Positions 2 through 14,022 of a stretch of 14,023 bases of DNA are shown here, piece after piece; the first letter of the stretch is position 1; each line of letters starts with the position of its first letter. The position numbers and the translations under genes were made by a program. This stretch comes from an uncultured Nitrososphaerota archaeon. GTDB taxonomy: Archaea > Asgardarchaeota > Njordarchaeia > Njordarchaeales > Njordarchaeaceae. The DNA is taken from positions 1 through 14,023 of the forward strand of contig CAZFGR010000035.1 in assembly GCA_964518475.1 (NCBI GenBank), read 5' to 3'. A model generated the notes under the pieces. The model was not told the DNA's origin, ran no database searches, and was given only the letters and a program-made list of their open reading frames with translations.

Positions 2-38
2 ATTTCAATTCCCTTTCTAGGGAGTCTATTTCTGGCTC
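2..38 (-). CRISPR. CRISPR repeat copy (37 nt), outward-facing, at window edge
   Basis: Minus strand reads GAGCCAGAAATAGACTCCCTAGAAAGGGAATTGAAAT, with a TCCCT/AGGGA stem and an ATTGAAA(N) 3' handle typical of Cas6-processed repeats. It is adjacent to a leader and cas genes. No spacer is visible because the window ends. The 5' boundary is inferred from the other copies. Confidence 0.85.
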
Positions 39-196
39 CGAGGCTCTCGTTGAGCCCCTTGTCCCTATGCTCGGATCCCGACAACATCGGCTTCGAACAT
101 CTATAATCTGAAAACTGGTATTTAAATATGTTCCCGATCATGCTTCACAGAGATGAAACACTGTCCCGTTTTCATGAGAAAAATATTAAAGATTTT
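39..196 (-). promoter_or_regulatory. CRISPR leader (copy 1)
   Basis: Non-coding, abuts the repeat 5' end, and is conserved in three copies in the window. TATA-like TATTTAAATA at 119-128; conserved ATGAAACACTGT and TGAGAAAAAYATTAAA blocks. Confidence 0.8.
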
Positions 197-315
197 CCAT
201 TGTTATGATGTTTGTTTTTCGTTTTGTTTGTACTTGGTTTCGTTTTTCTGCAGTTGTTTTGGTTAGGTTTTTATTTGTTTATTTTTCTTTGGTGTGTTTC
301 TTAGGGTGGTTGTGG

Positions 316-1272
316 ATGGTTTATTTTCTTAGTGGTGAGGAGCGTAGGTATATTTTTAGGGGTTTGCTTTCTCGTGCTAGGAGTGTTGGTGTTTCTTCTG
401 ATTGGAGGGGTTGGTCTTGGGATCGTCCTCCTTTGGCGTCTCCCTATGATGATGTTTTTCTTTCTCTTAGTGAGGTTGCTTCTAGGTATTGTTCTACTGG
501 TAGGGATATTTATCTTAGGCGTGTTGAGGGTGTTAAGTATTTTCCCAATAAGAGGATGGTTCGTGGTTTAGTTCTTCATAGGGTTGTTGAGGGAGTCATT
601 ACTTTTGGGAAACAGGTTCTCTATACTAATGGGGTTGTTTCTGGGAGTTTTATCTCGTCTGAGCTTGGTTCTCGAGCAAGTGAGGAGGTTGATAGGATTT
701 TTAAGGATTTTGGGGAGTTGTTTAAGAGGGCTGGTTATACGGAAGAGGATGTCGATGTTTTGAGGAGGAGAGCTATTAATCTTTGGTTGTATGAGACGAA
801 CCAAATTTCCGCTACTGTGGATTCCACTCTTTCTAGGCATCCTTATATCTCCCTAGACTCTCTGGTTAATCTCGCTATACCAGTTATTGTTGAGCAGCGC
901 TTGGATGGTCGGTTCCTGGGTTTTAGTGGTAATTTATCCGCGGATGCTCTGAGTTATGCTCCCGTTGTTCTTGATTTGAAGACTGGTGAGTTCCGCCCTT
1001 TTCAGAGGCTTACTACTACTGGTTACGCATTGGTTCTTGAGGCTCTCTATGAGGCACCGATTGATGTCGGTGTTCTCGTTAATCTGAACTTTGATGCTCG
1101 CGACTTCCCTATTATTCACAGGCGGGCCCATATTATTAGTGAGGCTTTGAGAATGGAGCTTATTGAGGAAAGGGATAAAAAGATGGAAATTGTTGCCGAG
1201 GAGATTGATCCAGGTATAGCACCTGATTGTCCCCATGATTGCCCGTTCTATAATACTTGTCACGGGGAGTGA
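316..1272 (+). CDS. csa1: CRISPR-associated Cas4-like protein Csa1 (I-A-type adaptation), ~318 aa
   Basis: N-terminal RGWSWDRPPL...LSEVASRYCSTGRDIYL signature, RecB-like ADA...DLKTG motif, C-terminal CPHDCPFYNTC cluster, directly upstream of cas1. Start moved to ATG316 (SD-like GGGTGGT); the 205-315 extension is low-complexity T/G sequence. Confidence 0.88.
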   Translation: MVYFLSGEERRYIFRGLLSRARSVGVSSDWRGWSWDRPPLASPYDDVFLSLSEVASRYCSTGRDIYLRRVEGVKYFPNKRMVRGLVLHRVVEGVITFGKQVLYTNGVVSGSFISSELGSRASEEVDRIFKDFGELFKRAGYTEEDVDVLRRRAINLWLYETNQISATVDSTLSRHPYISLDSLVNLAIPVIVEQRLDGRFLGFSGNLSADALSYAPVVLDLKTGEFRPFQRLTTTGYALVLEALYEAPIDVGVLVNLNFDARDFPIIHRRAHIISEALRMELIEERDKKMEIVAEEIDPGIAPDCPHDCPFYNTCHGE

Positions 1273-1273
1273 T

Positions 1274-2305
1274 GTGGGGCGATCCCTTTACATTACCAAG
1301 TACGGGGCTTTCATAGGTAAGTCTGGGAACAGGATAGTTGTGAAGTTAAATGATAGGAAAGAGGAGTACGTGCCTGATGATCTAGAAGATTTAATTATTG
1401 TTGGTCGTGGAAAATCAATATCAAGCGATGTTGTTAAGCTCTGCGTCGAGGCGAAAATCCCCATCTTTTTCACCACAATGGGTGAGTATCCGTACGCTAC
1501 CGTGATGCCCATGACTATTTCTGGGACTGTGAAGAGGAGGCGGGCTCAGTACGAGGCCTATATTTCCCCGCTAGGTATCGAGATTGCTAAGAAGTTCTTG
1601 GTTGGAAAACTATATAATCAGATGAATCTTCTACGTCTATGGGCTAAGTCGAGGATGAGAAGTGATAAAGTTGGTGCTGCGATGATTAAGAAGGCGGCTA
1701 ATACGATTAAGGATCTCCTAGATTCCTTGAAAAGCATCGCTGGTGAGAGAATGACTGGTGAGATTAGGGAGAAATTGATGAGTCTTGAGGCTAGGGCAGC
1801 GGATATTTACTGGATATGGTTTGGTCGAATACTTGGTGATGTTGCTTTCTTTCCGGGAAGAGTGAAGAGAGGCGCTATGGATCCTGTAAACTCTTTATTG
1901 AATCTTGGGTACGCGATACTGTTTAGGAGAGTTTTCAAAGCCGTGCTTATCAATGGTCTAGACCCATACGCTGGTTTTCTACACGCTGATAGGTCTGGCA
2001 GAGCTTCTCTTGTTCTCGATTTGATGGAGGAGTTTAGACAACAAGTAGTGGACCGAGTCGTGCTCAGGCTCTTCACGAAAAAGATGATTAGGTACGATGA
2101 GTGCGTGAATGATGAGGGTAGGTTAAGGGATAACGTCGTAGCAACAGCGATTAAGGAGTTCGAGAATAGGTTATCCGAGGAGGTAACAACGATCTATGGC
2201 GAGAAGAGGAGTATTATTAAGCATATAAATAACCAAGCAAGAAGCCTAGCCCGTTTCTTGATAGGAGATATCCCCGAGTACAGGCCTTTCGTTCTTTCCT
2301 GGTGA
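1274..2305 (+). CDS. cas1: CRISPR-associated integrase Cas1, ~343 aa
   Basis: Motifs EARAADIYW, DPVNSLLNLGY, GLDPYAGFLH and SLVLDLMEEFRQQVVD. Start placed at GTG1274 after SD-like GGGGAGTGA. Confidence 0.97.
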   Translation: MGRSLYITKYGAFIGKSGNRIVVKLNDRKEEYVPDDLEDLIIVGRGKSISSDVVKLCVEAKIPIFFTTMGEYPYATVMPMTISGTVKRRRAQYEAYISPLGIEIAKKFLVGKLYNQMNLLRLWAKSRMRSDKVGAAMIKKAANTIKDLLDSLKSIAGERMTGEIREKLMSLEARAADIYWIWFGRILGDVAFFPGRVKRGAMDPVNSLLNLGYAILFRRVFKAVLINGLDPYAGFLHADRSGRASLVLDLMEEFRQQVVDRVVLRLFTKKMIRYDECVNDEGRLRDNVVATAIKEFENRLSEEVTTIYGEKRSIIKHINNQARSLARFLIGDIPEYRPFVLSW

Positions 2306-2312
2306 GTATATA

Positions 2313-2645
2313 ATGATACTATTCCTCATAATATATGATATAACTAATGACAAGTTGAGGACTAGAATAGCGAATACGTTAAAGGATTATGGGCTGGAGA
2401 GAATACAGTACAGCGCCTTCATCGGTGAATTGAAGAGGTACCAACTTAATTCCTTGGTGACAGATATTAAGAAGCTCCTAAAAGAGATACCCATGGAAGA
2501 AGACGAGAGAGTCAGGAATGTTCAGATATATCCAATACCAGAGATTAGTCGCAGAGGCAGGATCGAGATAAGTTTTAAGGACGGGAAACTAAAAGAGTAT
2601 AGAGGAGACTCCACTCAGGAAAAGGAAAGAGTCGAGATACTGTAA
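2313..2645 (+). CDS. cas2: CRISPR-associated Cas2, 110 aa
   Basis: LIIYDI...LKDYGLERIQYSAF signature; follows cas1. Confidence 0.96.
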   Translation: MILFLIIYDITNDKLRTRIANTLKDYGLERIQYSAFIGELKRYQLNSLVTDIKKLLKEIPMEEDERVRNVQIYPIPEISRRGRIEISFKDGKLKEYRGDSTQEKERVEIL

Positions 2646-2658
2646 GAGGCGATGAAGC

Positions 2659-3498
2659 ATGTTCCTAGTATACACAATCAACGCTATCGCCGAAGACAAA
2701 GCCACGCTAGAATTCACCGGCCCATTTGTTAGGGGCTACTTTCTCAGCCTCGTTAAAAGAATTAGCCCTGAAAAAGCTGAACAGCTACATAATCCCAGTC
2801 CAGTAGCTCCCTACTCAATCAAACCAGTCTCTAAAAAAGTGATTATCAAGGGTAGGGTAAGGCATGTTTATGGGGATAGGATAGAGCTTAACCAAGGAGA
2901 CGAGGTCTCGTTCGGTTTCGCGTTGCTGGGTAGGGAAATGGTCAATGATCTAGGGATAGAGCTTCTCAACAAGATCTTCGAGGACTCTAGAATAAAAATA
3001 GGTAACGCAACCCTTGTCCTGAAGGAAGTAAATATCAACAGGGTAGAGAGGATCCAGACCCAGGAAAGCGAGAGAATCCTCATCCACTTCCTCACACCAA
3101 CATTCTTTAGGAAAAAAGGAAGTGCTTACAGAGACCTCTTCCCAGCGCCAAGGAACGTGTTAACATCCGTTGCTAGGATCTGGAAACTATTAATAGGAGA
3201 AGAAATAGATCTCGAAGAAATTAGAGAGATCGCTGAAAACGAGATCGGCGTACTAATGTATAAGTTGAGAACCTCCAGAACAATAGATCTAGGAAAAAAC
3301 AGGAAAGCAATCGGTTTCATAGGTAAATGCGTCTACGAGACCAGAGACCCGAAGGCAAGGAACTTGATGAATAGGTTCCTAGCTATTGGAGAAGTAACGA
3401 ATGTGGGTGGGAGCAGATCCCTTGGATTCGGTGTAATAAAGTGCACCCCGATTACGAAAGAGAAGTTGGAGAAGATTATGTCACAGGAACAGACATAA
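2659..3498 (+). CDS. cas6: CRISPR RNA-processing endoribonuclease Cas6, 279 aa
   Basis: LH...PYSI, FLTPTFFR, GFIGKCVY and the C-terminal Gly-rich loop VGGSRSLGFG. Confidence 0.93.
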   Translation: MFLVYTINAIAEDKATLEFTGPFVRGYFLSLVKRISPEKAEQLHNPSPVAPYSIKPVSKKVIIKGRVRHVYGDRIELNQGDEVSFGFALLGREMVNDLGIELLNKIFEDSRIKIGNATLVLKEVNINRVERIQTQESERILIHFLTPTFFRKKGSAYRDLFPAPRNVLTSVARIWKLLIGEEIDLEEIREIAENEIGVLMYKLRTSRTIDLGKNRKAIGFIGKCVYETRDPKARNLMNRFLAIGEVTNVGGSRSLGFGVIKCTPITKEKLEKIMSQEQT

Positions 3499-4064
3499 AG
3501 AACTGGATATACTGCCCCCTCATAGTGTATTACAGGAAAATAATGAAAGCGCCAATAGCGGTAAAGTCACAGCAAAAAGAAGGAAAAACAGTTCACGAAG
3601 AAGAACTAAAAAGAATAATCAGAAGAGTAGGGCTCGCAGCAAGAAAGAAAAAACTAGACATAATAGAGAAAATAATTAAGAAAAGAATACTCATAGAAGA
3701 GGAATCCCTCTACGGAGAAATAGACTTAGTAATAAAGACGAGAAGCAAAGAGATAATACCAGTAGAACTCAAGAATACGCAGAGCAATAAAGGAAAGCCC
3801 TGGCCAGACCACAGATACCAGCTAGCATACTACGCAATCCTACTAGAAAAAGAAACGGGAAAAATAATCAAGAGAGGATGCATATACTACATACCAGAAA
3901 ACAGGCTAGTAGAAATAATAATCACAAATCACGAGAAGAACTATGTCAGGAAAATAATAGAAAAAATCAAAGAAATGATGAAAACAGAGAAACCACCAAA
4001 ACAAAGAATACACCCAAGAAAATGCACAGGAGGATGCGGATACAAATGGATCTGCAAACCATAA
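3441..4064 (+). CDS. cas4: CRISPR-associated exonuclease Cas4, ~207 aa
   Basis: YCP plus C-terminal KCTGGCGYKWIC Fe-S cysteines; GEIDLV, VELK and QLAYY motifs. The GTG start overlaps cas6, so the exact start is uncertain. Confidence 0.93.
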   Translation: MHPDYEREVGEDYVTGTDIKNWIYCPLIVYYRKIMKAPIAVKSQQKEGKTVHEEELKRIIRRVGLAARKKKLDIIEKIIKKRILIEEESLYGEIDLVIKTRSKEIIPVELKNTQSNKGKPWPDHRYQLAYYAILLEKETGKIIKRGCIYYIPENRLVEIIITNHEKNYVRKIIEKIKEMMKTEKPPKQRIHPRKCTGGCGYKWICKP

Positions 4065-4114
4065 AGATTAGTAAATAACTATCCAGCACCTCCACCCAAA
4101 GAACCCGCATCAAG

Positions 4115-4630
4115 TCAGATACTCTTCTCAACTAAGTCCCAGAAATCACTCCTTCTCAACTCAAACACGAATATATCTAGGTAAGGAATCCTATACCTCC
4201 TCCTATAGTTCAGCAACTCCCTAATATCTATCTCTAAGCACTGATTCGAGATAACCTCTAGAAAATGATAACCCCGCCTCGACAACTCCTTATCCGCGTA
4301 TGAATCCCTATAAGAAAAACCCTTCTCGATAAAAAACCTCGCCAACAAAGCAGTGTGTCTCTTAGCAGTATAGGAAGGATACGGTGGAAAAATCGCCACA
4401 GACGTGTAGCATATCTTATTCCCATCCTTATCAACTTCCTCCGAACCATAGTTAATATAGACATATATCTTCTGAGGCTCCACCAAAATAGTGTGTAGAA
4501 GATCTATCAGTGAAGATAATAGAGATATAAGAAGAGGAGAAAACTTTTCCCTCACCTCATCTCCCTCTTCTAGATACTCAGCAAGAAACCTTGCCACACT
4601 CTCTAAGAAGAAAGGAAAAGACCCACCCAT
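4115..4630 (-). CDS. Hypothetical protein, 171 aa (cassette C)
   Basis: Open ORF with ATG and SD-like GGTGG. Starts 75 nt after a degenerate CRISPR repeat and resembles the neighbouring pseudogene. Confidence 0.75.
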   Translation of the reverse strand: MGGSFPFFLESVARFLAEYLEEGDEVREKFSPLLISLLSSLIDLLHTILVEPQKIYVYINYGSEEVDKDGNKICYTSVAIFPPYPSYTAKRHTALLARFFIEKGFSYRDSYADKELSRRGYHFLEVISNQCLEIDIRELLNYRRRYRIPYLDIFVFELRRSDFWDLVEKSI

Positions 4631-4705
4631 ACAACCACCAGAACAAAAATAAGATAAAAATCACAGATAAAGCTTAATAACAACTACTACCACCCGATAA
4701 TTCCG

Positions 4706-4742
4706 TCATTAATTCCCTCATCTAAAAGCCTATCATTAGCTC
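4706..4742 (-). CRISPR. Highly degenerate CRISPR repeat (R3)
   Basis: Plus strand TCATTAATTCCCTCATCTAAAAGCCTATCATTAGCTC aligns without gaps to consensus CTTTCAATTCCCTTATCTGGGAGTCTATTTCTGGCTC at 24/37. The stem is disrupted. Confidence 0.6.
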
Positions 4743-4772
4743 AAAGACTTCTAGGAAAAAATAGAAGGAAAT

Positions 4773-5282
4773 TTACATAACGTAGTTCTCGTAGACATAC
4801 TCAGTAAACTCCTCAGGTGGCGTTCTGAATCTTAACACCCTTATGAACGGAAGCTGTCTCCTCTTCCTAAACCTTATGGGTCCATCATATTTATCACCAA
4901 GGGAGCCGTAGTAATTGCATGAAATATATGAACCCCTAAGGGTTCCGCAAGAGTCCATGCATGGATACCCCGTAATCCAGTTAATACTTCTCCCTAAGAT
5001 AGTCCGCAAACTTCGAAGCATACATTACCGCTCTCCTACTATCTCTCAAATACCTAGGTGGCGCCCCGACTATGTAATTATCAAACTTTTTTCTCCACCA
5101 GACTCATCGAAGAAAACACACCTATTAATTGAGATATGAACCTCATTAACATAATCTCAGAACACCATGAGAATTATCGGCACGAACACAAAAAGTATCG
5201 AGAAAATTCTATACAATACTTCCCTATCTCTCTCTGTCAACTTCCTAATTGCATTAAGAATCTCCCTCACATATGTGTTCAT
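4773..5282 (-). pseudogene. Decayed ~170-codon gene (cassette B), probable distant paralogue of 4115..4630
   Basis: ATG5282 with SD AGGTGA is in frame with the stop at 4773. It has an internal TGA at 5157-5159 and two inferred compensating frameshifts (A6 tract 5087-5092 and ~4983). The listed 82-aa ORF overlaps its 3' end. Confidence 0.65.
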
Positions 5283-5337
5283 GAGTTCCTTCACCTTGAC
5301 TATATCAGTTTAAAAGAAGAAGCCTATACCAGAGGAA

Positions 5338-5374
5338 CTTTCAATTCCCTTATCTGGGAGTCTATTTCTAATTC
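5338..5374 (-). CRISPR. Near-intact CRISPR repeat (R2) between two gene cassettes
   Basis: Minus strand GAATTAGAAATAGACTCCCAGATAAGGGAATTGAAAG; 33/37 identical to the right terminal repeat, with stem and ATTGAAAG handle intact. Confidence 0.9.
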
Positions 5375-5442
5375 TCAAGCGTGTTTCACTAATTTTTATG
5401 CACTTAGATAATAGCCTATACTCATAAGGAAAAGATGTGTGC

Positions 5443-5458
5443 CAAAAAGGAGAAAAGA
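5443..5458 (-). terminator. Candidate oligo-T archaeal terminator after cassette A
   Basis: Pyrimidine/T-tract immediately after the stop (minus strand). A similar T6 tract follows cassette B at ~4756-4761. Confidence 0.35.
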
Positions 5459-5459
5459 G

Positions 5460-5897
5460 TTATCTCTGAAGTAGCTTATTAATTTCCGCAACAAGAAGCT
5501 CTATCTCATCCTTAGAAAGTATCTTTAGTTGTACCTTATATTGAATGTAGATAATATCTTCTAGGTTGTCATAGATATCGATCAAATACCATTCATTACC
5601 AATTACCTTCCAAAGCCTATAGAACCTCTTTTTCTTGCTTTTATCATAACAGAAATCTAGCTTGAATGGGCCAAATCTATGCTCCCTCTCCACATAATCA
5701 TCCCTAGCAACATAGTACTGAATTATCTCTGGAGTTGGTGCTATTAGATCATCATAAGACTCCTGACCATGGTAGCAATACCTGATAGTGTCTCCTACCC
5801 TAATACCCTTCAAGCACATATTGACAGCTTCAAGTACTAGTTTTATTTCCTCTTCCTCCGCACCACTAACATATTTATTATCTTGGTCAAGAGACAT
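5460..5897 (-). CDS. Hypothetical protein, 145 aa (cassette A), enclosed between two CRISPR repeats
   Basis: Intact ORF with ATG and SD GGAGAG; starts ~27 nt after repeat R1. No family recognised. Confidence 0.78.
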   Translation of the reverse strand: MSLDQDNKYVSGAEEEEIKLVLEAVNMCLKGIRVGDTIRYCYHGQESYDDLIAPTPEIIQYYVARDDYVEREHRFGPFKLDFCYDKSKKKRFYRLWKVIGNEWYLIDIYDNLEDIIYIQYKVQLKILSKDEIELLVAEINKLLQR

Positions 5898-5924
5898 GTG
5901 CTAACTCTCCATAAGTAGTCTTAT

Positions 5925-5963
5925 ATTTCCAAATTCCCTTATCTGGGAGTATAATTCTGACCG
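5925..5963 (-). CRISPR. Leader-proximal degenerate CRISPR repeat (R1)
   Basis: 19-nt core AATTCCCTTATCTGGGAGT (5932-5950) is identical to R2. Both flanks are diverged, and the handle is altered (…GGGAATTTGGAAAT). Confidence 0.82.
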
Positions 5964-6118
5964 TTCATACGCTTCTTGCTCCTTGTTCCAGTACTTAACT
6001 CTCCATGGCATCGATCTCAATATCTGTAACTAGGGAATCGCTATTTAAATATATTTCCAAACGAGTCTCGTTAGAATGAAACACTGTTTCACTCTAGTGA
6101 GAAAAACATTAAAAGTTT
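5964..6118 (-). promoter_or_regulatory. Diverged CRISPR leader (internal third copy)
   Basis: Collinear with the terminal leaders. TATTTAAATA at 6042-6051 lies ~78 nt from the repeat (80 nt in the terminal copies). CCAAACGAGTCTCG, ATGAAACACTGT and TGAGAAAAACATTAAA blocks are conserved. Confidence 0.85.
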
Positions 6119-6490
6119 CTTAAAGATAGACTACTTGTTTCTCGCATTAATTGTACCTTATCTCATTTTCATGAAAAACAAAGTAAGAAAATGGTTTGTC
6201 AAAATTTTTACTCGAAGTGGGATTGTTGTTTCCTCATACGCCATAATAATCATCTCTTGATGTAATACATTATCACAAATAGCTATTTCTCCGATACAAT
6301 TGGTGAAGAAGTGGCTAGAATAATTATTAAGTTGAGTACTATAATGAGGAGACAAAATGACTTCCAGACAAGGAAGTAGGTGCGAAGAATAATTCCATTG
6401 AGGATTATTTCTCAGATGGCTAATCGTGTAAGACATAAGGTTCTTTTGGATAGCTGATATCTTAGTTAATCTTTTTTGAAAATATAAGGC

Positions 6491-6513
6491 GATTCTCGTT
6501 AGGGAATTGGAGA
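6491..6513 (+). repeat. Possible pseudo-repeat (3' half of the CRISPR repeat)
   Basis: GATTCTCGTTAGGGAATTGGAGA shares AGGGAATTG with the repeat and can form an ATTCTC/GGGAAT stem. Confidence 0.3.
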
Positions 6514-6799
6514 TATTTTAGTTTTACTGGTATATTAGAGAACTCCCGATGCTATTTCATAGGAGATAATATTTGTGATGCTTCAATGATTAAAACTACT
6601 TGTATGTTTCGCAAAAATGATAATGCGTATCATTTTTATGAAATGCGCTTTGAATTGTGACGCTTAATTATGTTTTTTCTGTATTATTGTATTTCCTTAG
6701 CATTCTTAGATGGTTTTTAATATGCATTTTTATGAAGTATTTGATTATATGTATTTTCTTATTTTTCATTAGAAAAGTACTGCGTTTCATTTCAGTGAA

Positions 6800-6880
6800 A
6801 ATGTATTTAGTAATGTTTAAAAATATCTGTTTCTTGCTAAAAAAAGATAGACTTAATTGCTGAGATGCAAGTTGTCTTCT
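6800..6880 (+). promoter_or_regulatory. Probable promoter region of the I-D operon
   Basis: AT-rich intergenic DNA with TATA-like TTTAAAAA at 6816-6823 upstream of cas10d. Positional inference only. Confidence 0.4.
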
Positions 6881-9454
6881 ATGAAGCTTGAAGAGTTAAT
6901 TGAAGAACTAAGAAGAATTGCTGTGAAGAATAATTGGCATCTCAAGTATGCTAAATTTGGAGAGTTAGGCCATCAGAACTTGTTAATGCACTCTTTATCA
7001 GTCATGAGTATTGCTCTTAGGATCGCAGAGGTTATAGGCCTTGAACAAGAAAAGTACGAGATCCTAGTCATTTCCGGTTTTTTGCATGATGCCTTAAAAT
7101 CTAGTGATCGGTGGCAACGAGCTATAAAGGAGCGCGGGAGCGTTCCAGAGGATTTCTGGCAAAGGAATCCTGAGGAATTAAACAGAATAATTGATCAGTA
7201 CTCTGATGAGCTTGGTATTCCTGATCATGTCAGAAAAGCTGTTAAGGACATTATATATGTGGTAGAAAGCATCGAATCTGTAGAAAATTTGCTAGAAGCA
7301 TTAAAATCGAGGCCAGATTCTACAGTTGCTCATATTATCGAGTTAGCTGATAAGATTGGTAGTTTTAAGGAGCCTATGGAGGTAGAACGAGTATCCTCTG
7401 ATTCGAAACTAGCAACGATTTTGAGGAAATTCGGTCTAGTGCTAGATTATCATCAAGTCGATATTGTTAGAGGAATAACTACGCAGTTGCTTCATAAAGG
7501 TATTATGAAAGCATATGAAAAAGCGGGTTATACACCAGTTGCGTTCTTTTCCACAGGGACAATATACATCGGTAAGCGTGAGAATGTTCGAGAAATAACT
7601 GAGTCTGATATTATAGAGTGCGTGAATGAAGCTATTCGAAGTTTCTATGAAAGAAATGCAAAGAAACTTGGAGAAGCAGCGTATGGAGCTATAGGACAAA
7701 CAGTGATCAAAGTTCCAGAGTTTCTGTTCTTCTCAGACGCTACTATTAAGAGCTTCTGGGAATTTGTCTCAGGTAAGTTCGATGATGTAAAAAAGTACAT
7801 CATTAATATGACCATCATAAGGAACTCTATAATAAATCTTCTAGGCCAGAATGATGAAGTAAAAAATGTTCTTAACGAACTACGTAAGGAACTTTACGAG
7901 AAATATGGAATTGAGGATCATATTTTCGATTTATCTTTAAAGATCATTCATAAGAGTAGTAAGGATGAAAAAGAAGTTTTGGTTAAGGGAATATTAAATT
8001 CAGCATTAGGTAAAAAAGAGAGTGATCTTAAAGAGGAACTTAAAGAGATATACCTAAACTTTACATTAAAATTGTTAAAAATTGGTCAGGAGAAGTACAA
8101 TCTAAATAAGCGACTTTGCGAGATCTCCAAAATCTTGATCAGTGATTTGATTCATCCAGTGATCTCGGGAGGAGCTGAGAGTAGGGAAAGAATCCTTGAC
8201 GAATCATTTAGTAAATATTCAGAAGGCAAGGAGAATAAGCCGCCTTTATGCGTTTTGTGTGGTCGTCCAGCGGAGAGAAAAGCTATTGCTAGTTTGGTTG
8301 GTGAAGGGGCAGAGACTTTCCTTAATTTACTTCGTGGAGGCCGTATAATTGGAGGTGATGCAAAAGCTTGGTTATGTGATCTCTGTTACGCTGAATTTGA
8401 AATGCGAAGTATTCTGGGAGGCGGTGGTCAAAAGCGTTTTGAGGAGATCATCTACATACTACCCCAGATATCCATAGGTTTTCTTATCGTAGAAAAGCTT
8501 AAACAGAGCGTAGAGCATGCAATAGCTAATTGGCAAGTTACAAATGGCATAGAGGGAAACTATCTTCATTGGGCTGAAAAAATCGTCAAAGAACCAGAAG
8601 AGATCGATCCTCTAAGCAACTGGTCTGAACTATTTAATATTCTGATAGATAAGAAGAAGCAAAAACAAAACGAGAGAAAGATAAAGAAGATCATTAAAGA
8701 ATTATTGGAATCCAATGAGGGCTATAGAGAGATACTTGAAAAAACCTATGGAGATATAAGTGAAGAACTCATCTTGGAGAGGTACTTAGATAATTCCTTG
8801 AAAAAAGATCTTGTGGATCGCTCAACGCCGAACTCCCTAGAAAAAGCTATTGGGATGGCATTTATAGAGGAGCTAGAAAGAAAACTTAGGGAGAAGAAAG
8901 TTCTTGTGGAACGAGAGATAGTAGTTAGTGAGTCACCAAACTACATACTGATTGGAATGCAGAAACTCAGGAGCTATAATGAATCTGAAGCAAGTAGTAT
9001 GATCCGTAAACTATTTATAGGGGCTTTCCAAGCATTAGTTTTTCAATCAACAGTGATCTTTGCCTCTAAGAATGATGTACTGCGAAGACCTCATTTAATC
9101 TCGAAAGGTTATGTAAAAATTCCTCATAATATAATAGTAAAGGAACTTCTCAGAAGATACCGAATCGGCTACACAAAAGTACTAGGGAAAGAATTCTATG
9201 GGTGGGTAGGATTTGATGACATTATTAGAACTTTAAAAATTCTCGGCGCTGCTGTTTTGGTTGAAGATATCCTTAGAAGAGCCGGAGCTGATTATGGCGC
9301 AAATACCCTCTTAGAAATTCTTAAACGATCACCCGGTGTTATTTTGAATCGGTTCGTGCAAAATGTAGAATCCAAATCTATTAAACGTGAAGCTCTTAAA
9401 TTGTTAAAATATTTGAATATTTTGAATAAAAATCATCAAATAAGTATTAGCTAA
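6881..9454 (+). CDS. cas10d: Type I-D large subunit Cas10d (Csc3) with N-terminal HD nuclease, ~857 aa
   Basis: HQNLLMHSL...FLHDALK...LADKIGS HD domain; YHQV...RGITTQLLH; CVLC/CDLC zinc finger. Lies upstream of csc2/csc1 and an HD-less cas3'. Start set at ATG6881. Confidence 0.9.
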   Translation: MKLEELIEELRRIAVKNNWHLKYAKFGELGHQNLLMHSLSVMSIALRIAEVIGLEQEKYEILVISGFLHDALKSSDRWQRAIKERGSVPEDFWQRNPEELNRIIDQYSDELGIPDHVRKAVKDIIYVVESIESVENLLEALKSRPDSTVAHIIELADKIGSFKEPMEVERVSSDSKLATILRKFGLVLDYHQVDIVRGITTQLLHKGIMKAYEKAGYTPVAFFSTGTIYIGKRENVREITESDIIECVNEAIRSFYERNAKKLGEAAYGAIGQTVIKVPEFLFFSDATIKSFWEFVSGKFDDVKKYIINMTIIRNSIINLLGQNDEVKNVLNELRKELYEKYGIEDHIFDLSLKIIHKSSKDEKEVLVKGILNSALGKKESDLKEELKEIYLNFTLKLLKIGQEKYNLNKRLCEISKILISDLIHPVISGGAESRERILDESFSKYSEGKENKPPLCVLCGRPAERKAIASLVGEGAETFLNLLRGGRIIGGDAKAWLCDLCYAEFEMRSILGGGGQKRFEEIIYILPQISIGFLIVEKLKQSVEHAIANWQVTNGIEGNYLHWAEKIVKEPEEIDPLSNWSELFNILIDKKKQKQNERKIKKIIKELLESNEGYREILEKTYGDISEELILERYLDNSLKKDLVDRSTPNSLEKAIGMAFIEELERKLREKKVLVEREIVVSESPNYILIGMQKLRSYNESEASSMIRKLFIGAFQALVFQSTVIFASKNDVLRRPHLISKGYVKIPHNIIVKELLRRYRIGYTKVLGKEFYGWVGFDDIIRTLKILGAAVLVEDILRRAGADYGANTLLEILKRSPGVILNRFVQNVESKSIKREALKLLKYLNILNKNHQISIS

Positions 9455-9469
9455 AAAGAGGTAGGACTT

Positions 9470-9904
9470 ATGAGAAAGATAATAGTAATGAAAGAAGTAA
9501 AAGAATTTAATGCCGAAGAAGTTAAAGAATTAGTTAATAGAATTGTGAAAGTTTTAGTAGAGTACCTCGACACATTCGTGCCTAAGACTCCCGGTTGGAG
9601 TAAACACACTATCATGGGTCCTGTAGGCAAACTTCTATCTTTGATAACTAGTGGGCGATTCGAGAACCGGGATGCTATCATAGGGTATGTTATTAACGTA
9701 CATAGGAACACAGCTCGATCTGATTATGTTCCTAAGGAAGCTATCGATAAGTTAAATGATGCACTAACATTGATGCAAGAGCTAAGAAAGAAGGTATCTA
9801 CCCGAGTATGGCTAAGATTGCTGAGAGAAATAGATTATGCTGTTTATAAGTCAAGATTTGAAAAACTCTTAGCAAAAACTCAAGAAAAGCAGGAGGGAGC
9901 ATAA
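9470..9904 (+). CDS. cas11d: Probable stand-alone type I-D small subunit (Cas11d-like), 144 aa
   Basis: Small, helical-looking, basic protein with its own SD (GAGGTAGG), between cas10d and csc2. Assignment rests mainly on position and size. Confidence 0.62.
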   Translation: MRKIIVMKEVKEFNAEEVKELVNRIVKVLVEYLDTFVPKTPGWSKHTIMGPVGKLLSLITSGRFENRDAIIGYVINVHRNTARSDYVPKEAIDKLNDALTLMQELRKKVSTRVWLRLLREIDYAVYKSRFEKLLAKTQEKQEGA

Positions 9905-10885
9905 ATGAGTCTTGAAAAATTCTTAAATAATGTGAAAGAATATTTTGTCGAGAAAATCCCCCTAACTAGAACAGCAAAGACCATTCAGATATTGCTAATA
10001 CGGGAGACCCATGACTATACGATTTTCAGAACAGAAGAGACACGAGAGCTGAACATTGTTACTTTGCCTAGAAGTATGAGTGACCCCACTCCTACTATTC
10101 GTGTAGTTATGCTGGCGTCGAAGCAGAAAGCTCCAGAAAATCGGAAATACATTGAATTGGTAAGAACATTAGCTCTTGACTACGGAATAAATCTAGATGA
10201 TAAACAGAAAAACTGTGCATTAAAAGATGCTCTCTGCATGAAATGTCCCAGATGCGTACTTTTTGGTGCTGTATCCACAGAGGCTGGAGCGCAACGGTGG
10301 AATATAAAGCATCGAATCGAGTACAGTAGTGCATATTCTCTTGAAGATTACGAAGAAATTAGCGAGCTAATAACATTTAACGCGGTGGATTCTAGAACTC
10401 AATCAACGGGTCAAGCATTAGGCGTTACTGAAAACATCAGACCAATAGCTCACTTCCCTTCAATAATCACATTAAACACGGTTACTAAGGAAGAATTCAT
10501 AATGGTTCTAAAAACTATATTAGCAACAAGATCTTATGGGGCAGAGACTAGGATAAAAGGTGATATGGTAAACCACATCGTGGGAATAGTTTTTGCTTAC
10601 GAGGAACTATTAACTAGTTTAGAATTCCTCCTCGAGTTAGCTGATAAAAATTGGAAAGATGATATATACGAAGCTGTTAGCGACGTACTTAAAGAATACA
10701 AGAAAAACGCTGTCTTTCCAGATAAAGTAGTCATCTGGACTGGAGACGAACTAAGAAAATTCTTAGAAGAATTACATAAGTTCGAGATAAATAAGGAATT
10801 CGTTGAGAAACTATACACTACTGCTAAGAATTTCGTTGAGCAATTAGAGGCCATAGGAAAAGAAGGCAAAAAAAGTAAAAAATAA
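9905..10885 (+). CDS. csc2: Type I-D backbone subunit Cas7d (Csc2), 326 aa
   Basis: LIRETHDYTIFRTE, SKQKAPE, CMKCPRCVLFGA, ITFNAV, FPSIITL and YGAETR motifs characteristic of Csc2. Confidence 0.9.
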   Translation: MSLEKFLNNVKEYFVEKIPLTRTAKTIQILLIRETHDYTIFRTEETRELNIVTLPRSMSDPTPTIRVVMLASKQKAPENRKYIELVRTLALDYGINLDDKQKNCALKDALCMKCPRCVLFGAVSTEAGAQRWNIKHRIEYSSAYSLEDYEEISELITFNAVDSRTQSTGQALGVTENIRPIAHFPSIITLNTVTKEEFIMVLKTILATRSYGAETRIKGDMVNHIVGIVFAYEELLTSLEFLLELADKNWKDDIYEAVSDVLKEYKKNAVFPDKVVIWTGDELRKFLEELHKFEINKEFVEKLYTTAKNFVEQLEAIGKEGKKSKK

Positions 10886-10899
10886 CGGTGAGCTATAGA

Positions 10900-11634
10900 A
10901 TGGAGATTTTCAGAGTACTTCTAACTCCTCACGATTTTTTCTTTTATGTTTCCAGAGAATACGGTAGAGTAGGTATTACCGAAAATATAATAAGTAATTA
11001 TGCCTTAATGTACGCCTTAAATGACGAGAGTTTCTCTAGATTAGCCAGTGGAACAAAGCCTCATTATGAAGAAGATATTAAAAGATTTAGTGTTTACGCC
11101 ACACCAGCAAGACCATATAGTGGTAGTGCTCTTATTGGTGAGAAGAAGATTCCTTGGTCGTGGGAAGACCCCGTTTGGATATCCTATAATGCACTAGACT
11201 CCACGCTTCTCTTTACAATGGAAAAGGATAAAATAATTAAGAGAAAGTACAATGTACCTAAGGTTGGAACATATCTTAAACATCCGCCTCTTAATACGTT
11301 TGAATTTTTTATAATAGGTTCTCCTAAGAAAAAAGTGATTAGGATAGGAAAGAAGTTATCCCCAGCAAGAATAAGACTATTTAAATGCGAGGACATAAAG
11401 ATTAAAAGTGGAAGATTCACACCTTCTCATCCAGTAAACTATATGGATATAAAGGAAAAGACAAACATCATAAGAGGTAGATTCTTAACAATACCTCCCG
11501 TACCCCTGATTCTTGATGCAGTGCTGGAAGGAGAATACATAGAATGCAGATTTGTTAATGAAAGAGGATATAAAACCAAAGCTATCATCGCGCTTCCAGA
11601 TAAGAATCAATACCCCGGGGTATTTCATGAATAG
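10900..11634 (+). CDS. csc1: Type I-D Cas5d (Csc1), ~244 aa
   Basis: LTPHDFFFYVSRE, ISNYALMYAL, VYATPA and IRIGKK motifs. ATG10900 follows SD GGTGA. Confidence 0.87.
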   Translation: MEIFRVLLTPHDFFFYVSREYGRVGITENIISNYALMYALNDESFSRLASGTKPHYEEDIKRFSVYATPARPYSGSALIGEKKIPWSWEDPVWISYNALDSTLLFTMEKDKIIKRKYNVPKVGTYLKHPPLNTFEFFIIGSPKKKVIRIGKKLSPARIRLFKCEDIKIKSGRFTPSHPVNYMDIKEKTNIIRGRFLTIPPVPLILDAVLEGEYIECRFVNERGYKTKAIIALPDKNQYPGVFHE

Positions 11635-13672
11635 CGAGAATAGTAACGATTTTATCACTGTTCATCTAAAACCTTTGTATATTCCTTTTTCCAACGAATC
11701 TTTTGGGAAATATCGGTTACTTGAGAATCAGTATGATCTGTTGAGATCCACAAATAGAATATTGGTTATAGATTCCCCCACTTCTTCAGGCAAGACTCTA
11801 GGCATTATCGCAAAGCTCCTAAAAAGGGAACCAACTAGTAAAAAGTTGAATGGTATTTTAGTTTATCCTACAAATGAATTAATAAGAGATCAATTAAATA
11901 ACATAAAGAAGTACCTGACCGACATGTTTGAGTACATAATAGATGACTTCGGTGAGATACCAGAAAAACCTTTAAAACACTCTGTTGGAATTTTCGAAGT
12001 AAGTGGACCTAAACTTGATGAGATACTAGAGGAGTATCATCTCAGAGCTAAAGGAAGCATTCTTAGAAGAATTCTAATAAGTGGTTTAGAACACAAGATA
12101 ATTCTGACAAATCCAGACACGTTGTACTTACTTGTTCGTGCGGAATATAAGTATGGATTAGAACTTCTGAGAGATCTTATCCAAGAAAACTTCAACTTTC
12201 TCGCATTAGACGAATTCCATCTTTATTCTGGAGTAACTCTAATGAACCTCTTAACTACTCTTACCATCATAAATAACCTTCTTGATCAAATAATCATTTC
12301 CACTGCCACGATACCAGAAAAAACATTATTGACTAGATTAGAAAAAATTTTTAACGAAAGAATTTACCGCGTGAAGTATCACCTATATGCTCACAAAATT
12401 GAGAATGCTCGGAAAATCAGACATAGAACAAAACTTAAACTAGTAAAGATTCCATCGGAAAAAAAGGTACTCTGGAGAGAAGAGGATATCGACCTAATCC
12501 GTAATCTTGTTTACGAACTTTACGAGAAATACAAGAAGTACGACACCAGTGTAAAAGTTCTAATAATAGTAAACTCTGTTATATTTGCTGAAAAACTTAG
12601 GAGAAAACTCGAGGAAGATTTTCCTGAAAAAGTTGCTGGTATTCACGGATTTGTACCATCAAAATTAAGAAGACTGAACGAAATAACTGTAGGAACTTCA
12701 GCAATAGAGGTGGGAATCGACTTTATAACCCCTTCATTAATATTTGAGGCAAATGATGCAGCATCATTCATACAGAGATTAGGTCGCGTATCAAGACATA
12801 TGGATGGAGAAGCTATAGGAATAATCCCTTACTGGGACTGGGAAGTCATTAAGAAAAAGATAAAAACCCCTGAACTTGACTATGAAACTTTCAATAGAAT
12901 CATTTTGGAATCAATGAATATCTTACCTAGCTACTCCGATTTTATCCAAAGTCTGCAAGCCCGCCTACTTCTTTATTCATATATTTGGCGTCTAACTGGA
13001 TATCTTGTAAAAACTAGAAAAATCTCTAGGGAAGCTAGAGAGTCCCAATTTATTAAACTAATAAACGAGAGCGCCAGATGTTTTCTATCAGATAGCCCAG
13101 ATGACGCTGAAAAAGAGCTTAGGTACATAGTCCTATTCATCAAGAAACAAATATCTTTAGGAAAATACATAAAGGCTCTCGAAAAGTACTCATTCAGAGC
13201 ACCCAGAGCTTGGATACCTGGTATATACAATGGAGAAATCATAAACCTATCAATCGAAGATCTAAACTACATAGATTTTGAGATACATAATGAGGGCGAC
13301 ATTAAGCAATTACACATTAGTAAGGAGACGAGAAAATACTTAAAGAGAAAAATGGAACTAGCTGATGCTGACTTCTTTCTAGAAATCAGAGACATAGGGA
13401 CTTATAATAATATAAGATTTACAATTATTGATCGCGAATTGGAAGAATCTAGCGCTCCCTTTATAATATCAGATAAAAACTTGGCATGTCAAGCAGAATA
13501 CCCAGATATAGCCAATCACGTAATGAAGATCCTAAGAAACGATATCGCATTCATCTCCACTAGAATCAATGACTGGCGACTATCAGGATTCAGACTATCC
13601 AAAAATAAATGGTTAATCATCGGGCCAGACTCCCTACTGGCATGGTACATATCACAACAAAAACAAATTTAG
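11627..13672 (+). CDS. cas3: Type I-D Cas3' SF2 helicase (no HD domain), ~681 aa
   Basis: SPTSSGKT, YPTNEL, DEFH, STAT, TSAIEVGIDF and QRLGR motifs. Start set at ATG11627, overlapping the csc1 stop. Confidence 0.93.
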   Translation: MNSENSNDFITVHLKPLYIPFSNESFGKYRLLENQYDLLRSTNRILVIDSPTSSGKTLGIIAKLLKREPTSKKLNGILVYPTNELIRDQLNNIKKYLTDMFEYIIDDFGEIPEKPLKHSVGIFEVSGPKLDEILEEYHLRAKGSILRRILISGLEHKIILTNPDTLYLLVRAEYKYGLELLRDLIQENFNFLALDEFHLYSGVTLMNLLTTLTIINNLLDQIIISTATIPEKTLLTRLEKIFNERIYRVKYHLYAHKIENARKIRHRTKLKLVKIPSEKKVLWREEDIDLIRNLVYELYEKYKKYDTSVKVLIIVNSVIFAEKLRRKLEEDFPEKVAGIHGFVPSKLRRLNEITVGTSAIEVGIDFITPSLIFEANDAASFIQRLGRVSRHMDGEAIGIIPYWDWEVIKKKIKTPELDYETFNRIILESMNILPSYSDFIQSLQARLLLYSYIWRLTGYLVKTRKISREARESQFIKLINESARCFLSDSPDDAEKELRYIVLFIKKQISLGKYIKALEKYSFRAPRAWIPGIYNGEIINLSIEDLNYIDFEIHNEGDIKQLHISKETRKYLKRKMELADADFFLEIRDIGTYNNIRFTIIDRELEESSAPFIISDKNLACQAEYPDIANHVMKILRNDIAFISTRINDWRLSGFRLSKNKWLIIGPDSLLAWYISQQKQI

Positions 13673-13827
13673 TCTCAATTTTACTCCTTGATCCAATTCC
13701 TAGTCAAAATAACAATTCAAAGATAGAAATGTTAATCCGAAAGACAATACTTAAAAACAACTCTGAAGTTATCATGAAAATGAAACGATGAATAAATAAG
13801 ATAGGAATACAGCGACCTCTAATGCCA

Positions 13828-13985
13828 AAAATCTTTAATATTTTTCTCATGAAGATGGGACAGTGTTTCATCTTGGCGAGACTTGTTTGGGAACATATTT
13901 AAATACTGGTTTTCAGATTATAGATGTTCGAAGCCGATGTTGTCGGGATCCGAGCATAGGGACAGGGGGCTCAACGAGAGCCTCG
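13828..13985 (+). promoter_or_regulatory. CRISPR leader (copy 2)
   Basis: Homologous to 39..196 and 5964..6118; TATTTAAATA at 13896-13905; precedes a repeat. Confidence 0.8.
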
Positions 13986-14022
13986 GAGCCAGAAATAGAC
14001 TCCCAGACAAGGGAATTGAAAG
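13986..14022 (+). CRISPR. CRISPR repeat copy (37 nt), outward-facing, at window edge
   Basis: GAGCCAGAAATAGACTCCCAGACAAGGGAATTGAAAG, with TCCC/GGGA stem and ATTGAAAG handle. Confidence 0.88.

Follow-up and report, generated by a model that had tools for sequence, protein, structure and literature searches.

How can a CRISPR array come to hold whole genes where short spacers would be expected? The question is raised by the window analysed here, a 14,023-bp stretch of DNA that constitutes the entire contig C35 of G000, a 2.33-Mb, 121-contig metagenome-assembled genome (MAG; 91% complete, 5.8% contamination) of a Njordarchaeales archaeon. Within its cas locus a CRISPR leader on the minus strand is followed by three repeats, named R1 to R3 in order of distance from the leader, with gene-sized DNA after each: the 145-aa orphan gene P0001 between R1 and R2, a 170-codon frame between R2 and R3, and the 171-aa orphan gene P0002 beyond R3 (Table 1). 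A first-pass annotation, made from the sequence alone, had read this arrangement as an integron-like series of gene cassettes captured one after another, and knew of no described system with such an architecture. Serial capture of three cassettes is not upheld, since only the 145-aa unit is a real gene between two repeats. The region is probably the second CRISPR array of the locus, eroded to three repeats through ordinary erosion and repeat recombination rather than built by gene capture, and its three "cassettes" are best read as the outcome of three different and mostly mundane histories: one is a trailer gene resident at the site, another a fragment that has been truncated, and the third an old gene shared by horizontal spread.

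That a leader, three repeats and gene-sized inter-repeat DNA lie on the minus strand is borne out by leader alignment and repeat scores. The internal leader aligns over ~155 nt with five other leaders, namely those at the left (34-200) and right (13834-13990) ends of the window and those of contigs C45, L034 and L011 (upstream leader). Its TTTAAATA box, an apparent archaeal TATA element, is conserved in five of the six aligned leaders, the L011 upstream leader having TCTAGATA instead. For the repeats, the 30-nt variants found in the genome were scored over 4.65 million genome positions, where 22/30 was the top score outside arrays and recognisable solitary repeats. R2 is canonical and differs by one base from the repeat of a sister strain's normal array (contig L017); R1 carries two changes in its 5′ part and an extra T plus further changes in its 3′ handle. 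R3 has the lowest score, and matches of its grade are expected by chance in its 113-nt gap only ~0.005 times; it also aligns in position with the terminal repeat of the normal array on L017, so its identification as a repeat stands. A homologous leader, at least two direct repeats above background and an ordinary array at the same site in relatives thus mark the region as a CRISPR array. Uniform short spacers (~30-50 nt) are missing: in normal arrays with repeats of this family a new unit begins every 74-79 nt, whereas here the start-to-start distances are 589 nt (R1 to R2) and 632 nt (R2 to R3), the inter-repeat segments measure ~558 and ~600 nt, and R3 lies 592 nt from the stop of the 171-aa open reading frame (ORF). 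The earlier remark that the leader-distal repeat is the most decayed holds for R3, but the pattern of an ordinary array, to which it had been likened, is broken at the leader end: R1, the leader-proximal repeat, has decayed further than R2, and next to it the final ~20 nt of the leader have diverged from the canonical leader-repeat junction. This degeneracy of R1 and of the leader-R1 junction supports erosion, and the eroded array is probably no longer an acquisition site.

Both the 145-aa and the 171-aa ORFs are intact and co-oriented with the leader, as first described. The 171-aa ORF had been taken for the last cassette of the series; no repeat follows it before cas4, and comparison with sister strains gives it a different history. 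On the ENA contig L017 the gene P0005, 96% identical to P0002, also lies beside cas4 and is directly preceded by an ordinary array of ten repeats (77-nt period, spacers of ~47 nt) that ends 53 nt before the ATG. Logan contigs of runs X3 and X4 contain the same junction as L017, in which 34 nt separate the gene from a canonical repeat (joints at 4648/4658 to 5338), and in run X1 this junction occurs as a minor form with a depth of 11 versus 27-43. Since coexisting strains have a normal array at this very site, the 171-aa gene is no cassette but merely the conserved, resident neighbour lying past the array's terminal repeat. Two congeners, G001 and G008, have toxin-antitoxin genes downstream of cas4 and lack this array. 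P0002 has no Pfam or NCBIfam match, and its AlphaFold2 model (pLDDT 77) gave no significant PDB match by Foldseek and only generic helical-hairpin matches with VIA-align. Residues 2-104 show a weak and probably uninformative similarity to the Ligase_CoA_2 region of a 464-aa protein resembling ADP-forming acetyl-CoA synthetases; it is seen in five genomes belonging to one genus, at 33% identity with E = 8e-6 per genome.

The rule of one gene per unit fails for the segment between R2 and R3. Its 170-codon frame (5282-4773, minus strand) is interrupted by in-frame stops at codons 42, 71, 79 and 86, and its only homologue is L034/P0010, L034 being a 1,092-nt scaffold. Between the two, substitutions fall on codon positions 1, 2 and 3 in the numbers 8, 10 and 7, and three indels (a 2-nt deletion and two 1-nt insertions) break the frame; this even spread, together with the indels, implies that the frame evolves neutrally. 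Homology with L034 stops at position 4753 of the window, 16 nt before R3, and at this point the window cuts off an antisense gene, of which L034 has at least 83 aa, leaving only the last 21 codons and stop. The middle segment is a truncated, neutrally decaying piece of a larger region rather than a one-gene cassette, and its far edge in L034 does not lie at a repeat. The deletion that cut the antisense gene would have joined the segment to R3 and the trailer region. None of its pieces has a Pfam or NCBIfam match. Paralogy of the middle frame with the 171-aa protein was considered and rejected: the local score of 40 was reached in 21 of 500 shuffles and the global z-score was 1.4, neither of which is significant.

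The unit between R1 and R2 is of another kind. P0001 and its homologue P0004 share 85% of their amino acids with dN/dS 0.13 at dS 0.54, a ratio that identifies P0001 as a selected protein-coding gene. It is a gene under purifying selection in spacer position, and its presence or absence varies exactly at the repeats; this much of the original proposal is confirmed. An exhaustive HMMER search found only four relatives of P0001; P0006, a 43%-identical homologue, lies in a repeat-free context. Relatives were absent from IMG/VR viral contigs, JGI metagenome contigs and GTDB genome contigs, and searches of 400 genomes of the phylum returned weak matches only. P0001 has no Pfam, NCBIfam or PDB-fold match, ESM Atlas gave nothing usable, and its AlphaFold2 model (pLDDT 63) likewise produced no significant PDB match by Foldseek and only generic helical-hairpin matches with VIA-align. 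PADLOC and PHROGs searches with the ORFs yielded weak rows (E at least 0.016) that we take as chance. The family search proposed for the cassette proteins (profiles, Foldseek, viral collections) has therefore led to no family, defence, phage or fold match.

The state without the 145-aa unit is found in L034, which is ~96% identical to the window and in which leader and one repeat are followed directly by the sequence that comes after R2. This single repeat is chimeric, with a 5′ part of R1 type and a 3′ part of R2 type, and the longest stretch identical between R1 and R2 is 19 nt, which makes a collapse during assembly at k of 21 or more unlikely. R1-gene-R2 is present in the window and also in L011 (see below), a much more distant relative of the window than L034, so that loss is the parsimonious direction. 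The L034 state is thus more parsimoniously explained by recombination or slippage between R1 and R2 than as an empty pre-insertion site; an empty site should appear as an intact single repeat in unit-free relatives, but the repeat of L034 is recombinant. Loss of spacers through repeat-repeat recombination or slippage is an accepted route (reviewed in PMC8047081).

Further evidence on the age of the unit comes from contigs L011 and L012 of GCA_054385655.1, a distant Njordarchaeales genome that carries a block of P0001 type in an eroded array. The shared block corresponds to window positions 6050-5338 (~0.71 kb) and comprises the leader TATA, 92 nt of proximal leader, R1, the gene, its 3′ region and R2. 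Its edges are the TATA box upstream and the position immediately after R2 downstream, and both flanks beyond are unrelated. The window and L011 have in common the departures of R1 from the canonical repeat (two 5′ changes, one T more in the handle) as well as the canonical 5′ and 3′ ends of R2, so these features are old. At the nucleotide level the block is 81% identical between G000 and L011, non-coding parts included, whereas the housekeeping DHDPS gene of L012 and its best match in G000 reach 65% (63% at the amino-acid level); a MazE-PIN pair common to G000 and L012 is 66-67% identical in amino acids. The excess of the block over DHDPS suggests that it spread horizontally, most simply within a transferred CRISPR locus. 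In L011 the block lies within a toxin-antitoxin island that also contains a DUF932 gene and lone repeats belonging to two families. Upstream of it come a separate leader, a repeat, 310 nt and then a second repeat directly adjoining the truncated leader. One inter-repeat segment of L011 is thus a leader remnant, which indicates that in this lineage long inter-repeat DNA can arise by fusion of neighbouring arrays, without the capture that had been supposed.

Nothing in the region requires gene capture by Cas1-Cas2. The transcript of P0001 would start at the leader promoter and include R1 in its 5′ untranslated region, or would start from an A/T-rich box at the 3′ end of R1, and units would move or vanish through repeat-repeat recombination instead of Cas1-Cas2 activity. 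Several observations weigh against this account of erosion and recombination. L034 is a short (1.1-kb) scaffold with a 10-N gap starting 10 nt after its repeat. The divergence baseline for horizontal spread is one housekeeping gene, in a MAG with the contamination given above. The non-coding parts of the block have Jukes-Cantor distances of 0.18-0.35 and are no more diverged than synonymous sites (dS 0.54); this low divergence and the 4-bp stems kept in R1 and R2 of the window make some function of the repeats possible. Finally, no donor of the 145-aa unit was found in the viral, metagenome and genome collections, and no true empty site is known.

A function of the repeats is the substance of the best-surviving alternative, which we regard as rather unlikely. 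Whatever the origin of the gene, the leader transcript might be cut by Cas6 at R1 and R2, coupling an accessory or regulatory protein to CRISPR expression. The TATA box, R1 and R2 have been retained with the gene in two diverged genomes, with homology edges exactly at the TATA box and R2; in the window the 4-bp stem is kept in both R1 and R2 and the ATTGAAAG handle in R2, cas6 belongs to the same locus, and a ribosome-binding site and ATG lie 29 nt after R1. The stem is lost, however, in the R2′ of L011 and in R3, which is dead, and the handle is altered in R1. P0001 matches no known Cas-accessory or defence family. The expression signals also speak against it. Runs of five or six T follow the 145-aa ORF and the middle frame, that of the 145-aa ORF preceding R2 and resembling a terminator; TATA-like boxes precede the ATG of the middle frame and that of the 171-aa gene by ~30 nt; and mutation has turned the 3′ end of R1 into an A/T-rich box, 28-33 nt ahead of the ATG of the 145-aa gene, that could be this gene's own promoter. 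Among the public runs listed, none is recorded as RNA. On sequence grounds these signals look like those of separate transcription units, and the T-runs and the boxes before individual ATGs argue against the repeat-punctuated operon processed by Cas6 that the first-pass annotation had offered as its second option. CreA-like self-targeting was not apparent, as the 45-mers after R1, R2 and R3 gave only chance matches of 13-14 nt (E at least 0.2) in the genome.

It is improbable, in our estimate, that Cas1-Cas2 (with Csa1 and Cas4) integrated gene-length DNA at the leader end as an aberrant long spacer and duplicated the repeat, and that selection then preserved the resulting 145-aa unit, perhaps along with the middle segment. 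The unit does lie directly after the leader and between two repeats, a complete adaptation module is 1.3 kb away, and faulty protospacer processing is one scenario discussed for the pseudo-spacer of Sulfolobus islandicus LAL14/1 (PMC3718332). Yet R1 and R2 differ at 6-7 positions, and since L011 shares these differences there is no sign of a recent duplication, although in a unit of this age (dS 0.54) the divergence could postdate insertion. The first repeat and the leader junction are degenerate, the far edge of the middle segment in L034 is away from any repeat, and the insert is a complete, co-oriented gene with a ribosome-binding site and a T-run, which would be rare for a random fragment. 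The chimeric repeat of L034 is predicted by deletion, whereas an empty site would need R2 to have reverted to consensus at two positions. A broader version of the proposal, to which we also give little credence, has R1, the 145-aa gene and R2 with the leader promoter forming a repeat-bounded mobile cassette that enters and leaves arrays by Cas1-Cas2 integration of long DNA or by repeat-specific recombination and is leader-expressed and Cas6-trimmed. If this were true, Asgard-related CRISPR arrays would double as integron-like platforms for accessory genes. As regards integrons, only the 145-aa unit is bounded by repeats on both sides, and no recombinase family was found among the called genes in 16 kb around the array (cas genes, csa3, orphans).

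We see only a slim chance that a mobile element with its own leader-repeat or solitary repeat, such as a virus mini-array or a Racr-like decoy, recombined into the host array and brought P0001 as a counter-defence or element gene. The unit in L011 abuts the DUF932 gene and toxin-antitoxin pairs among which solitary repeats of two families are scattered, the block and a 415-aa gene (see below) are far more similar between the genomes than DHDPS is, and solitary repeat units on mobile elements have been published (PMC10651486). Against this, no relative of P0001 was detected in the viral contig collection, PHROGs or GTDB representative genomes, no integrase or other element hallmark lies beside the unit in the window, and the similarity is accounted for just as well if a CRISPR locus was transferred as a whole. 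An assembly artefact in which repeats joined contigs from different places is very unlikely, in spite of a 121-contig MAG of which several contigs terminate in CRISPR repeats, because the 56.5-kb ENA contig L035 (megahit k141) is 100% identical to window positions 3-13897 (13,895 nt), because Logan contigs of run X1 span R2, the middle segment, R3 and the gene as well as the gene, R1 and the leader without differences, so that two independent assemblies confirm the architecture, and because R1, R2 and R3 are each unique in sequence, differing from one another and from the repeats of other arrays.

The eroded array is embedded in a locus that is otherwise recognisable by its cas genes (Table 1). 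On the plus strand csa1, cas1, cas2, cas6 and cas4 are followed by the minus-strand stretch 4115-6436 and then by a type I-D effector set, in which csc2, csc1 and cas3 correspond to precomputed Pfam matches (Csc2, Csc1, Cas3) on the identical contig L035. The locus thus pairs adaptation genes of Csa1 type (I-A-like) with effectors of type I-D. Within the adaptation module, cas6 comes after cas2 and shares 58 nt with the next gene, cas4 (window 2659-4064). Between cas10d and csc2 a separate 144-aa ORF (9470-9904) without family match occupies the site where a small-subunit (Cas11-like) protein might be expected. Upstream of the internal leader, in the 740-nt AT-rich gap before cas10d, a 92-aa minus-strand ORF (6158-6436) has neither homologues nor a Pfam or NCBIfam match, is uncalled on the identical ENA contig and is probably not a gene. 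No Rfam family matched within window positions 3900-6900.

Table 1. Coordinates of the features of the locus, in window positions.
Feature	Position	Strand	Basis or remark
Left repeat (3-33) and its leader (34-200)	3..200	-	
Adaptation/processing module	205..4064	+	Pfam and NCBIfam
csa1	205-1272	+	Pfam/NCBIfam
cas1	1235-2305	+	Pfam/NCBIfam
cas2	2313-2645	+	Pfam/NCBIfam
cas6	2659-3498	+	Pfam/NCBIfam
cas4	3441-4064	+	Pfam/NCBIfam
171-aa orphan gene P0002	4115..4630	-	convergent with cas4
R3, strongly decayed terminal repeat, stem lost	4707..4736	-	19/30
Middle inter-repeat segment, ~600 nt	4737..5337	-	
Antisense gene remnant, last 21 codons (4755-4817) and stop	4755..4820	+	comparison with L034
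R2, canonical repeat	5338..5369	-	29-30/30
T5 run, 12 nt after the 145-aa stop, terminator-like	5444..5448	-	probable archaeal oligo-T termination
145-aa orphan gene P0001, between R1 and R2	5460..5897	-	
R1, decayed leader-proximal repeat	5926..5958	-	24-25/30
Internal CRISPR leader	5959..6118	-	six-leader alignment; blastn to other leaders
TTTAAATA box of internal leader, putative TATA element	6042..6049	-	archaeal TATA consensus
Type I-D effector module (cas10d, 144-aa ORF, csc2, csc1, cas3)	6857..13672	+	
cas10d with HD domain	6857-9454	+	NCBIfam Cas10d/Csc3
Right leader (13834-13990) and first repeat of the array leaving the contig	13834..14021	+	

At both ends of the contig a leader and repeat point outward. 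On L035 (13700-14340), which extends the window past position 3, the left leader is followed by one single repeat; then come an ORF in antisense that resembles a nucleotidyltransferase, csa3 and another array, whose repeats are of a third variant. The window strain may therefore have only one repeat remaining in its left array as well. Solitary repeats outside arrays were detected at C43:2272-2301, C45:721-750 and C15:2872-2901 (29/30, 29/30 and 25/30), that of C43 lying 140 nt upstream of a 270-aa ORF in the same orientation. In L011 a solitary repeat (5660-5691) identical to the second repeat family of G000 (C46 array) stands between a PIN gene and an NTase/HEPN pair. Long inter-repeat segments also occur elsewhere: an array at C32:14813-15570 (L040) contains one of 407 nt (437 nt start to start) with small two-helix hydrophobic ORFs (55-90 aa), and the comparable 310-nt segment at L011:2664-2973 carries a 56-aa hydrophobic antisense ORF. 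Neither the segments nor their small membrane ORFs are homologous to one another. A 415-aa orphan gene at L011:8271-9609 is 83% identical, in nucleotides and amino acids, to its counterpart at C45:2975-4305, versus 65% of nucleotides for DHDPS, and is a second candidate for recent exchange. Its contig, C45, terminates in a leader-repeat on one side and has a solitary repeat close to the opposite end. C45 was rejected as a second case of a gene between repeats, because it has just a single repeat there and the ORF is an open-ended fragment, the 3′ portion of some longer gene.

What makes the locus interesting is that a gene under purifying selection has remained enclosed by two CRISPR repeats, downstream of a leader promoter, in two archaeal genomes that have diverged from each other. 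Should the repeats turn out to be processed, or to be required for the gene to move, CRISPR parts would have been put to a new use; failing that, the arrangement is simply what ordinary array decay leaves behind. Among known arrangements, CreTA with its crRNA-like RNAs and Racr units also place degenerate or solitary repeats in or beside cas loci near small genes (bioRxiv 10.1101/2024.01.05.574328; PMC10651486); such units have one or two repeats with a spacer-sized promoter-matching segment or a lone decoy, whereas the segments here are ~560-600 nt long. With integron arrays (IntI, attI, attC, Pc) the region shares a promoter at one end, a co-oriented and promoterless-looking gene, recombination-prone repeats and presence or absence of a cassette, but it has no tyrosine recombinase, no attC-type folded sites, only one real cassette and no evidence for site-specific excision circles. 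The decayed terminal repeat, presence/absence variation at repeats, chimeric repeat and shrinkage to one to three repeats are features of ordinary array erosion (PMC8047081; Kupczok 2015, PMC4524480), although the units in that case are spacers of 30-50 nt and not of 0.56-0.6 kb, one of them encoding a selected protein.

The nearest published case is SiL-E1, a 2-kb pseudo-spacer with five ORFs between perfect repeats in CRISPR_2 of S. islandicus LAL14/1 (Jaubert et al. 2013, PMC3718332). In both, gene-bearing DNA occupies a spacer position of an archaeal array beside cas genes, and faulty Cas processing or recombination are the candidate origins. A gene-bearing pseudo-spacer had thus already been published, although the first-pass annotation knew of no described system with this architecture; SiL-E1 is clearly plasmid-derived and strain-specific with identical flanking repeats, whereas here one selected 145-aa orphan gene lies between diverged repeats in a unit that is tied to a leader promoter and shared with a distant genome. 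The present case illustrates how an array with genes as spacers can arise without gene-capturing machinery, from a trailer gene, a fused or deleted fragment and a hitchhiking gene, and it offers a useful control for bolder "mega-spacer" readings, including the one raised for SiL-E1 in the 2013 paper.

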